Shown here piece by piece: positions 37,083 through 39,737 of a DNA stretch of 64,000 nucleotides. Made by a program: the position numbers and the translations under genes. Where the stretch lies: the NCBI RefSeq assembly GCF_988242995.1, contig NZ_OZ547043.1; one strand, written 5' to 3'. Position 1 is the stretch's first letter; each line of letters opens with the position of its first letter. The notes under the pieces are model-generated. The model ran no database searches. It had not been told where the DNA came from and saw nothing but the letters and a program-made list of their open reading frames with translations.

Positions 37083-38105
37083 ATGAAAAAAGTGTTATTG
37101 ATTATCTTGTTATTACTGGTGGTACTGGGTATCGCCGCTGGTGTGGGCGTCTGGAAGGTTCGCCATCTTGCCGACAGCAAATTGCTTATCAAAGAAGAGA
37201 CGATATTTACCCTGAAGGCTGGGACCGGACGTCTGGCGCTCGGTGAACAGCTTTATGCCGATAAGATCATCAATCGCCCACGGGTTTTCCAATGGCTGCT
37301 GCGTATCGAACCGGATCTTTCTCACTTTAAAGCCGGGACTTACCGCTTTACACCGCAGATGACCGTGCGCGAGATGCTGAAATTGCTGGAAAGCGGTAAA
37401 GAAGCACAGTTCCCTCTGCGACTGGTAGAAGGGATGCGTTTGAGCGATTACCTCAAGCAATTGCGTGAGGCCCCGTATATCAAGCATACGCTGAGCGACG
37501 ATAAGTACGCCACCGTAGCGCAGGCACTTGAACTGGAAAACCCAGAGTGGATTGAAGGTTGGTTCTGGCCAGACACCTGGATGTATACCGCCAATACCAC
37601 CGATGTCGCGTTACTCAAGCGAGCGCACAAGAAAATGGTGAAAGCGGTCGATAGCGCCTGGGAAGGGCGTGCGGACGGTCTGCCCTATAAAGATAAAAAC
37701 CAGCTGGTGACGATGGCATCAATTATCGAAAAAGAAACCGCCGTTGCCAGTGAACGCGATCAGGTTGCCTCGGTATTTATCAACCGGTTACGCATTGGTA
37801 TGCGCCTGCAGACCGACCCGACCGTGATTTACGGGATGGGAGAGCGTTATAATGGCAAACTTTCTCGTGCAGACCTGGAAACGCCGACAGCGTATAACAC
37901 CTATACCATTACCGGTTTGCCGCCAGGTGCAATAGCTACGCCGGGGGCGGATTCGCTGAAGGCTGCTGCGCATCCGGCAAAAACGCCGTATCTCTATTTT
38001 GTGGCCGATGGTAAAGGTGGTCACACGTTTAATACCAATCTTGCCAGTCATAACAAGTCTGTGCAGGATTATCTGAAAGTGCTTAAGGAAAAAAATGCGC
38101 AGTAA
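37083..38105 (+). CDS. mltG: endolytic murein transglycosylase MltG (YceG)
   Basis: Track ORF 340 aa with N-terminal membrane anchor; starts 2 nt after the pabC stop. Confidence 0.93.
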
Positions 38106-38736
38106 GTATATCGTCATTGAGGGGCTGGAAGGCGCAGGCAAAACTACCGCGCGTAACGTGGTGGTTGAGACGCTCGAGCAACTGGGTATCCGCGACATGG
38201 TTTTCACTCGGGAACCTGGCGGTACGCAACTTGCCGAAAAGTTAAGAAGCCTGGTGCTGGATATCAAATCGGTAGGCGATGAAGTCATTACCGATAAAGC
38301 CGAAGTTCTGATGTTTTATGCCGCGCGCGTTCAACTGGTAGAAACGGTCATCAAACCTGCGCTGGCTAACGGCACCTGGGTGATTGGCGATCGCCACGAT
38401 CTCTCCACTCAGGCGTATCAGGGCGGCGGACGTGGTATTGACCAACATATGCTGGCAACACTGCGTGATGCTGTTCTCGGGGATTTTCGCCCCGACTTAA
38501 CGCTCTATCTCGATGTTACCCCGGAGGTTGGCTTAAAACGCGCGCGTGCGCGCGGCGAGCTGGATCGTATTGAGCAAGAATCTTTCGATTTCTTTAATCG
38601 CACCCGCGCCCGCTATCTGGAACTGGCAGCACAAGATAAAAGCATTCATACCATTGATGCCACCCAGCCGCTGGAGGCCGTGATGGATGCAATCCGCACT
38701 ACCGTGACCAACTGGGTGAAGGAGTTGGACGCATGA
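38095..38736 (+). CDS. tmk: thymidylate kinase
   Basis: Track ORF 213 aa, P-loop GLEGAGKTT; overlaps the mltG 3' end by 11 nt. Confidence 0.95.
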
Positions 38737-39737
38737 GATGGTATCCATGGTTACGACCTGATTTCGAAAAACTGGTAGCCAGCTATCAGGCCGGAAGAGG
38801 TCACCATGCGCTACTCATTCAGGCGTTACCGGGCATGGGCGATGATGCTTTAATCTACGCCCTGAGCCGTTATTTACTCTGCCAACAACCGCAGGGCCAC
38901 AAAAGTTGCGGTCACTGTCGTGGATGTCAGTTGATGCAGGCTGGCACACATCCCGATTACTACACCCTGGCTCCCGAAAAAGGGAAAAATGCGCTGGGCA
39001 TTGATGCGGTACGTGAGGTCACCGAAAAGCTGAATGAGCACGCACGCTTAGGTGGTGCGAAAGTTGTCTGGGTAACCGATGCTGCCTTACTAACCGACGC
39101 CGCGGCTAACGCATTGCTGAAAACGCTTGAAGAGCCACCAGCAGAAACGTGGTTTTTCCTTGCTACCCGCGAGCCAGAACGTTTACTGGCAACATTACGT
39201 AGTCGTTGTCGGTTACATTACCTTGCGCCGCCGCCGGAACAGTACGCCGTGACCTGGCTTTCACGCGAAGTGACAATGTCACAGGATGCACTACTTGCCG
39301 CATTGCGCTTAAGCGCCGGTTCGCCTGGCGCGGCACTGGCGTTGTTTCAGGGAGATAACTGGCAGGCTCGTGAAACATTGTGTCAGGCGCTGGCATATAG
39401 CGTGCAATCGGGCGACTGGTATTCGCTGCTAGCGGCCCTTAATCATGAACAAGCTCCGGCGCGTTTACACTGGCTGGCAACGTTGCTGATGGATGCGCTA
39501 AAACGCCATTATGGCGCTGCGCAGGTGACCAATGTTGATGTGCCGGGGCTGGTCGTCGAACTGGCAAACCATCTTTCTCCCTCGCGCCTGCAGGCTATAC
39601 TGGGGGATGTTTGCCACATTCGTGAACAGTTAATGTCCGTCACAGGCATCAACCGCGAGCTTCTCATCACCGATCTTTTACTGCGTATTGAGCATTACCT
39701 GCAACCGGGCGTTGTGCTACCGGTTCCTCATCTTTAA
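38733..39737 (+). CDS. holB: DNA polymerase III delta-prime subunit
   Basis: Track ORF 334 aa; ATGA overlap with the tmk stop. Confidence 0.95.

Follow-up and report, generated by a model that had tools for sequence, protein, structure and literature searches.

The window, a 64,000-nt stretch of an E. coli chromosome, corresponds to K-12 positions ~1,117,030-1,181,030. It wholly contains 63 K-12 gene models, every one of which mapped at full length and with intact frames. Exactly six of the 49 co-directional neighbour pairs in the window overlap. These sole overlaps are the junctions that a first-pass annotation of the sequence had listed, and the list is therefore complete. The genes and junctions concerned are given here.

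19246-20343, plus strand: flgI
20343-21284, plus strand: flgJ
20341-20345, plus strand: flgI stop and flgJ start, TGATG (1 nt shared at 20343; K-12 1137371)
37083-38105, plus strand: mltG
38095-38736, plus strand: tmk, dTMP kinase, 213 aa (K-12 and PGAP annotation, mapping)
38085-38105, plus strand: mltG/tmk junction, with tmk SD AAGGA 38085-38089, tmk ATG 38095 and mltG TAA 38103-38105
38095-38105, plus strand: mltG/tmk overlap, 11 nt, ATGCGCAGTAA
38733-39737, plus strand: holB, DNA polymerase III delta' subunit, 334 aa (K-12 and PGAP annotation, mapping)
38719-38736, plus strand: tmk/holB junction, with holB SD AAGGAG 38719-38724 and the 4-nt ATGA overlap 38733-38736
45609-46250, plus strand: lpoB
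46231-47055, plus strand: thiK, GTG start
46231-46250, plus strand: lpoB/thiK overlap, 20 nt, from thiK GTG 46231 to lpoB TAA 46248-46250
60562-61761, plus strand: lolC
61754-62455, plus strand: lolD
62455-63699, plus strand: lolE
61754-61761, plus strand: lolC/lolD overlap, 8 nt, ATGAATAA
62440-62491, plus strand: lolD/lolE junction (motif TAATG, 1 nt shared at 62455) in a predicted hairpin, with GGAG 62449-62452, lolD TAA 62453-62455, lolE ATG 62455 and a second ATG 62461

All six overlaps are present in the sequence at the places, with the lengths and with the motifs that the first-pass annotation had reported; the coordinates under which it had filed them, 38095-39737, are those of tmk plus holB. 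The same six overlaps occur in curated K-12 (NC_000913.3), in the PGAP annotation of the closest genome and, with identical values, in the K-12 pair table of Huber et al. 2023 (PMC10666635). Since the starts agree with those of curated K-12, which do not remove the overlaps, the comparison that had been proposed as a possible refutation does not refute the earlier claim. Spacings of -8 to +6 nt were found in 10 of the 49 window pairs (20%), compared with 707 of 2,987 pairs (24%) genome-wide in E. coli. The six overlaps are real, conserved and ordinary features of bacterial operons, and they were already known.

The two genes of each pair lie on the same strand, and the operons are pabC-mltG-tmk-holB-ycfH, hinT-ycfL-lpoB-thiK-nagZ, lolCDE and flgB-J. 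In Zhao 2019, mltG (as yceG), tmk, holB and ycfH carry a single operon identifier, and lolC, lolD and lolE carry another. A scan of the plus strand from pabC to ycfH for promoter-like or terminator-like sites returned no consensus matches; an internal promoter that would turn tmk or holB into a first cistron was thus not seen, but this is weak evidence. The pabC/mltG junction alternates between spacings of +2 and -4 among genera.

It had been argued that the overlaps support the choice of start codons. The starts themselves are sound: they match curated K-12, those of tmk, lolD and flgJ have start-site peaks, and the overlaps are conserved. Taken alone, however, an overlap is not enough to vouch for a start: the longest ycfH ORF (TTG 39688) would falsely share 50 nt with holB, while the curated ycfH start, ATG 39748, lies 10 nt past holB and has start-site evidence. 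Callers also differ at lolE, where many automatic annotations take the second ATG and predict a 412-aa protein without overlap; one such call represents a cluster of 7,536 members. This raises the question of whether some overlaps are artefacts of starts chosen too early, for example at lolE (second ATG 62461) or thiK (TTG 46270). Besides the 412-aa LolE calls and the false holB/ycfH overlap that a longest-ORF rule would make, such a reading could appeal to the spacing of the GGAG motif, which is 2 nt before the first lolE ATG versus 8 nt before the second, and to the GTG start, weak SD and lack of start-site signal at thiK.

However, Citrobacter lolE begins ATG GCT TCG, with Ser in place of Met3 and no second ATG, and thus only the first ATG, which makes the overlap, is conserved. 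The LolE protein search gave E. coli-level sequences only, and Citrobacter and E. albertii were reached through the neighbouring nagK. Of 51 species, 50 have a GTG start at thiK, and the lpoB GGT codon, whose T contributes to this GTG, keeps that T in every species compared. In most species the conserved ThiK motif (T/S)RDxxLSRYFP comes before the next possible in-frame start. The next in-frame starts of holB (+102 nt) and tmk (+63 nt) would delete conserved N-termini, namely M(R/K)WYPWLRP of HolB, kept in 78 species, and the Tmk P-loop at residues 9-17. Experiments confirm the starts of tmk and lolD, and curated K-12 retains all six overlaps. Considering the Citrobacter lolE start, the conservation of the thiK GTG, the start-site data and curated K-12, we rejected misannotation as the source of the overlaps; the idea is scarcely credible. 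In the databases, 648-aa LolD-LolE "fusion proteins" also occur, which carry one additional base in, or just upstream of, the G5 run at 62443-62447 and are probable sequencing errors.

Overlap lengths are conserved among Enterobacteriaceae species at mltG/tmk (75 of 79), tmk/holB (76 of 78) and lpoB/thiK (48 of 51). The core of the mltG/tmk junction, CTTAAGGAAAAAAATGnGCAGTAA, hardly varies among 75 species, and E. albertii and Citrobacter share the lolC/lolD overlap sequence unchanged. At mltG/tmk, tmk/holB and lpoB/thiK, the upstream gene varies significantly less at third codon positions between -20 and its stop than it does in the region before. The respective entropies are 0.43 vs 1.16, 0.60 vs 1.34 and 0.65 vs 1.15 (p = 3e-4, 7e-3 and 2e-3), p-values that, like those for opening energy across species, are optimistic because the compared species are related. 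Judged from sequence, this shows that signals embedded in the upstream genes are under purifying selection. Every one of the six downstream starts has its own SD-like sequence inside the upstream gene. Anti-SD duplex energies are -8.3 kcal/mol for holB, -8.4 for lolE, -6.1 for tmk, -5.6 for lolD, -4.9 for thiK and -3.3 for flgJ, where the SD is weak, and the SD motifs are conserved at tmk, holB and thiK.

Start-site data, a check proposed with the first-pass annotation, bore out some of these starts but not others. The tmk start has INRI-seq peaks in five of five replicates and, in vivo, a peak under retapamulin in the Ribo-RET data. The lolD start has peaks in both data sets, and the LolD N-terminal peptide has also been found. 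The flgJ start has an in vitro INRI-seq peak in four of five replicates and no in vivo Ribo-RET signal. Neither INRI-seq nor Ribo-RET shows a peak at the holB, thiK or lolE start. The INRI-seq transcripts are isolated and span -30 to +153, so that no more than 30 nt precede the start codon. As tmk, lolD and flgJ load ribosomes on such transcripts, coupling is not required for their translation. The other three are harder to read. Over all annotated starts, INRI-seq misses about 30% and Ribo-RET 82%, lolE template was scarce (8.3 CPM), and lolC and mltG, which have no upstream overlap, are likewise undetected. The non-detection of holB, thiK and lolE starts is thus weak evidence for dependence. 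Of these genes, Burkhardt 2017 lists only tmk and lolD.

Predicted opening energy splits the six downstream genes perfectly, with values of about 6 kcal/mol for tmk (6.4), lolD (5.9) and flgJ (6.6) versus higher values for holB (11.2), thiK (12-13) and lolE (22.5, the 61st of 63 window genes). The pattern of low tmk, high holB and high thiK energies holds across species, where the medians are 5.7 kcal/mol for tmk and 14.9 for holB. Among 30 window genes folded as exact INRI-seq constructs, holB (16.7 kcal/mol) and lolE have the most occluded RBSs, although opening energy did not separate detected from undetected starts in this set (p=0.53). For holB and lolE, these folding predictions hint that opening energy may be a cause of non-detection.

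The lolE start is predicted to lie in a hairpin of -23.4 kcal/mol (z=-2.26). In Citrobacter the top of the stem is broken by three non-compensated changes, and the hairpin is only partly kept. RNAalifold analysis of 48-77 species revealed no conserved structure hiding the start at holB, thiK or tmk (structure conservation indices 0.05, 0.20 and 0.04) and no compensatory pairs at these starts. The idea of a conserved unfolding switch at these three genes was abandoned in view of the low indices and the lack of compensatory pairs.

The first-pass annotation had stated that the overlaps imply translational coupling. Coupling does occur at comparable junctions: reporters show termination-reinitiation at other E. 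coli -4/-1 pairs, with a steep dependence on distance, and short overlaps of -1, -4 and -8 nt belong to the class so demonstrated. Four of the five overlapping E. coli pairs tested were coupled and an SD motif was needed in four of five tested pairs, but bioBF overlaps without coupling, and "imply" is too strong. In Huber 2023 (PMC10666635), -8 to +10 nt is the spacing window predictive of reinitiation. The spacings of mltG/tmk (-11 nt) and lpoB/thiK (-20 nt) lie outside this window and outside the -8 to +6 class.

At the other extreme, the overlaps could be side effects of a compact genome and of mutational routes that are easily taken, with independent initiation from each gene's own SD and no role for coupling at any of the six junctions. 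An ATG already gives three of the four ATGA bases, and the -4 spacing is probably common since it is easily evolved (review, PMC12548453). The uncoupled bioBF overlap, the toggling of pabC/mltG between +2 and -4, the SD-like sequence at every downstream start and the three autonomous starts all agree with this account. It is less compatible with the fact that almost all of some 50-80 species share precisely the same overlap lengths, among them the unusual -11 and -20, and with a median Tmk-HolB distance of -4 nt across prokaryotes (n=835). The lack of autonomous initiation at holB and lolE, whose sites are the most occluded, speaks against it as well. A viable strain carries a re-engineered tmk/holB overlap, but its junction is still tightly adjacent, and the strain is for this reason no test of a loss of coupling. 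We consider compaction as the whole explanation unlikely.

We suggest instead, with good though not full confidence, that the six ordinary operon junctions are not equivalent: tmk, lolD and flgJ would be autonomous, while holB, lolE and perhaps thiK would depend on upstream translation. On reaching the end of its gene, an upstream ribosome would melt the local mRNA, and its termination site would be 1-17 nt away from the downstream start. Either that ribosome could reinitiate at this start, or its passage could make room for a new 30S subunit; the evidence for reinitiation is strongest at overlaps of -1, -4 and -8 nt. The RBSs of tmk, lolD and flgJ are predicted to be open and also work alone, so that coupling at these genes would be at most additive. 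The sites of holB, lolE and perhaps thiK, predicted to be occluded and without autonomous initiation, are candidates for dependence, and their output would be below that of the upstream gene.

The junctions had also been described as typical of stoichiometrically coupled operons. This description suits only lolC/lolD and lolD/lolE, which join genes for one complex; the other four junctions join unrelated proteins. MltG, Tmk and HolB, for example, serve separate functions, and their copy numbers are clearly unequal. Label-free estimates, which are imprecise for low-abundance and membrane proteins, give 71 copies per cell for MltG, 133 for Tmk, 36 for HolB and 125 for YcfH. The excess of Tmk over MltG fits a tmk that is autonomous plus coupled, and HolB below Tmk fits a holB made by partial reinitiation only. 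The LolCDE complex has a ratio of 1:2:1, and the estimates of 129 copies for LolC, 58 for LolD and 192 for LolE (replicates 300 and 85) are noisy and not 1:2:1.

Read at full strength, the earlier description would make all six overlaps tight coupling devices that fix the stoichiometry of the encoded proteins. Overlapping and near-overlapping E. coli pairs are enriched 4.5-fold for complex subunits, and the Huber 2023 complex score is "yes" for lolC/lolD and lolD/lolE, subunits of one ABC transporter (PMC10666635). The coupling of four in five tested overlapping pairs also favours such devices. The same table scores flgI/flgJ and lpoB/thiK as not complex partners and leaves mltG/tmk and tmk/holB unscored, and genome-wide only 30.4% of E. 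coli pairs at -8 to +10 nt encode complex subunits (PMC10666635). By this table together with the established functions of MltG, Tmk, delta', LpoB, ThiK, FlgI and FlgJ, there is no common complex for four of the six pairs. In addition, the copies of MltG, Tmk and HolB are unequal, tmk, lolD and flgJ start without upstream translation, and equal output through coupling would miss the ratio that LolCDE needs, since this is 1:2:1. Stoichiometry as a general purpose is very improbable; balanced subunit production is a plausible purpose for lolC-lolD-lolE only.

A bolder version of upstream dependence can be put forward for one junction. The tmk-holB ATGA could be an obligatory reinitiation device, with holB lacking a working RBS of its own and the clamp-loader subunit delta' made at a constant share, roughly one quarter, of the rate for dTMP kinase, and lolE could depend on lolD in parallel. 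We regard this as quite unlikely. If true, it would tie replisome supply to dTTP supply and would explain why the -4 nt junction is kept in 835 species by two proteins that form no complex.

In practical terms, these genes have been given sound start codons, and the junction spacing of this stretch of E. coli is typical. Overlap should be taken neither as proof of coupling nor as an indicator of subunit stoichiometry. From public data on start sites and the proteome, the junctions already fall into those of self-initiating tmk, lolD and flgJ and those of possibly upstream-dependent holB, lolE and thiK. Essential genes are involved, namely holB, tmk and lolCDE, and LolCDE is also a target of antibiotics. 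Given this essentiality and the possible upstream dependence, polar effects on holB and lolE at the translation level are to be expected when an upstream gene is recoded or knocked down.

Three known systems invite comparison. Proportional synthesis of complex subunits is resembled by lolC, lolD and lolE, which encode one transporter, are adjacent and have widely kept overlaps of -8 and -1 nt; median distances across prokaryotes are -5.8 for LolC/E-LolD (n=1123) and -2.1 for LolD-LolE (n=861). Unlike in that system, 1:1 coupling is not a required outcome for the 1:2:1 LolCDE complex, and the other four junctions join unrelated proteins. Coupling by RNA unfolding, in which translation of the upstream gene melts a structure over the downstream start (PMC12548453), is resembled by the lolE start and, less clearly, those of holB and thiK, which are predicted to be buried and are silent on naked transcripts. 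The differences are that holB, thiK and tmk have no conserved or covarying helix, that the lolE hairpin is only partly kept in Citrobacter, and that structure prediction is not a general predictor of in vitro initiation. Termination-reinitiation (TeRe) coupling (Huber et al. 2019, PMC6728339; Huber et al. 2023, PMC10666635; review Brown & Wade 2025, PMC12548453) differs from the present case in that three downstream starts here also initiate autonomously and that mltG/tmk and lpoB/thiK lie outside its spacing window. The likeness to TeRe lies in the co-directional ATGA, TAATG, TGATG and ATGnnTAA overlaps, in the SD inside the upstream gene, and in tmk/holB, lolD/lolE, flgI/flgJ and lolC/lolD, which fall inside the -8 to +6 window described as a mark of TeRe and appear in the authors' own K-12 table.

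As read from the sequence, neighbouring genes share nucleotides at six junctions of the window (negative spacings are overlaps in nt, positive ones gaps):

20343, flgI/flgJ, overlap of 1 nt, junction CTGATGA
38095-38105, mltG/tmk, overlap of 11 nt, junction ...AAGGAAAAAAATGCGCAGTAA
38733-38736, tmk/holB, overlap of 4 nt, junction GCATGAGA
46231-46250, lpoB/thiK, overlap of 20 nt, junction GTGCCGTTTCGCAGCAATAA
61754-61761, lolC/lolD, overlap of 8 nt, junction ATGAATAA
62455, lolD/lolE, overlap of 1 nt, junction GAGTAATGG

The 49 pairs of co-directional neighbours in the window contain no further overlap, so the list in the first-pass annotation contained neither omissions nor inventions. 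Curated K-12 and the PGAP annotation of the nearest genome have identical spacings at all six junctions, and the same values (-1, -11, -4, -20, -8 and -1) stand in the table of K-12 pairs published by Huber et al. 2023 (PMC10666635). Since these three sources agree, comparison with curated starts, which had been named as a possible refutation, leaves the overlaps in place and confirms the observation. The junctions belong to a well-described class, short co-directional overlaps; they were already known and add nothing new. Their earlier interpretation is partly supported.

The 4 kb around the finding (gene order yceG(mltG)-tmk-holB-ycfH-ptsG) has matches in 5,424 of the 5,426 complete genomes of E. 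coli, with identities of 95-99.5%. Mapping of the K-12 gene set placed the window at K-12 positions ~1,117,030-1,181,030, from trhO to nagK in unchanged orientation, and all 63 K-12 coding genes wholly inside it have their full length, a start codon, a single stop and an intact frame. The genes rne and nagZ, annotated as frameshifted pseudogenes in the closest complete genome (NZ_LR778147.1, 99.5% identity), are both intact in the window. Between ndh and ycfJ (50360-51897), where K-12 has a 209-nt gap, the window has an insertion of the IS3 family that other annotations call IS1397; only one of the 5,426 complete genomes carries it there. Between bhsA and ldtC, an 81-nt gap in K-12, an IS200C element at ~53800-54510 is common to 91 complete E. 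coli genomes. Features of these elements and the expected known RNAs (Rfam) are:

5618-5667, minus strand, PyrC leader
27363-27699, minus strand, RNase E 5' UTR element
29560-29728, plus strand, sRNA SraB
50477-51199, minus strand, OrfB (rve integrase) of the IS1397 element
51304-51834, minus strand, OrfA (HTH domains) of the IS1397 element
53834-53957, plus strand, STnc490 (Rfam family match), at the IS200C insertion
53916-54425, plus strand, Y1 transposase of the IS200C element

A Tmk scan with one genome per species yielded 80 loci from Enterobacteriaceae, with flanks of up to 10 kb. The overlap was -11 at mltG/tmk in 75 of 79 species, -4 at tmk/holB in 76 of 78 and -20 at lpoB/thiK in 48 of 51. 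Entropy at third codon positions was lower from -20 to the stop than further upstream in mltG (0.43 versus 1.16, p=3e-4), tmk (0.60 versus 1.34, p=7e-3) and lpoB (0.65 versus 1.15, p=2e-3), p-values that are optimistic because the species are related and some positions are not synonymous. The neighbouring pabC/mltG junction (37080-37083) has a spacing of +2 nt in 36 of 70 species, and also in E. coli, but -4 nt in 24 of the 70, and thus alternates between adjacent and overlapping within the family. Published cross-phylum spacings have medians of -4 for Tmk-HolB (quartiles -4 to +3, n=835), -1 for MltG-Tmk (n=352), -5.8 for LolC/E-LolD (n=1123), -2.1 for LolD-LolE (n=861) and +6.35 for FlgI-FlgJ (n=468). 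Ten of the 49 window pairs (20%) fall in the -8..+6 nt class, compared with 24% genome-wide, and seven in the E. coli-specific +9..+12 peak. The junction spacing of the window is typical, and the overlaps are more than chance, yet not unusual.

When rare arginine codons were recoded in an E. coli strain, codon 2 of holB (AGA, as in the window) had to be spared a simple change to CGU, since that destroys the tmk stop codon; the overlap was re-engineered and the strain is viable. The exact ATGA is therefore dispensable, and the two genes are still tightly adjacent in the recoded strain. Successful genome designs in Pseudomonas putida purposely left holB joined to the upstream kinase gene via TGATG.

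Each of the six downstream genes has independent evidence for its start. The tmk ATG (K-12 1155124) has in-vitro INRI-seq start-site peaks in all five replicates and an in-vivo retapamulin (Ribo-RET) peak, and beginning at the next in-frame start would cost Tmk its P-loop. The lolD start has both kinds of peak and an N-terminal peptide mapped to 1176619, while flgJ has INRI-seq peaks in four of five replicates. The HolB N-terminus M(R/K)WYPWLRP is kept from codon 1 in 78 species, with 102 nt to the next in-frame start. Of 51 species, 50 have the thiK GTG; its invariant T is the third base of a glycine codon (GGT) of lpoB and is synonymous there, and in most species the conserved ThiK motif (T/S)RDxxLSRYFP precedes the next possible start. 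For lolE, the NCBI protein starts at the overlapping ATG (62455) and has 414 aa, and many automatic calls (ENA, Logan), among them the one that represents a cluster of 7,536 members, give 412 aa from a second ATG two codons in (62461), which has the better SD spacing in E. coli. Citrobacter lolE begins ATG GCT TCG, which leaves the first, overlapping ATG as the only conserved one.

The starts chosen in the first-pass annotation match curated K-12, but ycfH is a counter-example to its argument that overlaps support start choice. There the longest ORF, from TTG 39688, would give a false 50-nt overlap with holB, whereas the curated ATG (39748, 10 nt past holB) has INRI-seq and Ribo-RET peaks and 66 of 76 species share its +10 spacing. 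An overlap does not tell which start codon is right.

Two observations concern these junctions. Within 38079-38105, a GTG that lies 16 nt before the tmk ATG, in the mltG frame and preceded by AGGA at 10 nt spacing, has an INRI-seq peak of 24 CPM in five of five replicates, exceeding that of the ATG; its mini-ORF of eight codons would end at the mltG stop within tmk. It has no Ribo-RET signal in vivo, and the peak may therefore be an in-vitro artefact. Public databases (Logan assemblies, a few NCBI genomes) also hold 648-aa LolD-LolE 'fusion' proteins, in which an extra base in or just upstream of a G5 run (junction 62443-62457) puts lolD in the lolE frame without its stop. Their probable origin is sequencing error in the homopolymer.

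The subunits of LolCDE stand at 1:2:1. FlgI is present in many copies in the P ring but FlgJ, the rod-cap enzyme, in few, and the clamp loader has a single delta' subunit. In none of these cases would 1:1 output be required. The proposal of stoichiometrically coupled operons suits lolC/lolD and lolD/lolE, the only two junctions joining subunits of one complex, and not the other four. Of the E. coli pairs at -8..+10 nt across the genome, 69.6% do not code for subunits of a complex. Label-free copy numbers per BW25113 cell, imprecise for scarce and membrane proteins, are 71 for MltG, 133 for Tmk, 36 for HolB and 125 for YcfH, and 129 for LolC, 58 for LolD and 192 for LolE (replicates 300 and 85). 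Tmk exceeds the upstream MltG, which requires initiation beyond coupling at tmk, and HolB at about a quarter of Tmk is consistent with partial reinitiation.

Ribosome start-site data, suggested earlier as a check, divide the six downstream starts. INRI-seq uses one isolated transcript per gene (-30 to +153), so the upstream gene is untranslated in the assay. Ribosomes nevertheless load at the tmk, lolD and flgJ starts, whereas holB, thiK and lolE gave zero signal in five of five INRI-seq replicates and zero in vivo with retapamulin. This non-detection is weak evidence, because the in-vitro assay misses 30% of all annotated starts and the in-vivo assay 82%, lolC and mltG go undetected as well, and the lolE template is scarce (8.3 CPM). 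The split matches predicted RBS opening energies (kcal/mol) of 6.4, 5.9 and 6.6 for tmk, lolD and flgJ and 11.2, 12.7 and 22.5 for holB, thiK and lolE. When 30 window genes were folded exactly as in the INRI constructs, holB and lolE came out as the most occluded two, but opening energy over the whole set did not distinguish the starts that were detected from those that were not (p=0.53). Median energies across species are 5.7 for tmk, 14.9 for holB and 12.5 for thiK, with neighbours at 7-9. The lolE start lies within a predicted -23.4 kcal/mol hairpin (62440-62491) enclosing the SD, the lolD stop and both ATGs; in Citrobacter the stem top is broken, with the site still predicted to be occluded at 15.6 kcal/mol. 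No conserved or covarying helix was found at holB, thiK or tmk.

Reinitiation is plausible at holB and lolE. Coupling at tmk, lolD and flgJ, if any, is at most additive, and that at thiK, with its -20 nt overlap, GTG start and weak SD, is uncertain. Published reporter work on five other E. coli pairs that overlap saw termination-reinitiation at four, its efficiency dropping steeply as distance grows, and the overlapping pair bioBF showed no coupling. Four of our six junctions match the geometry of the termination-reinitiation pairs, whereas mltG/tmk (-11) and lpoB/thiK (-20) lie outside it.
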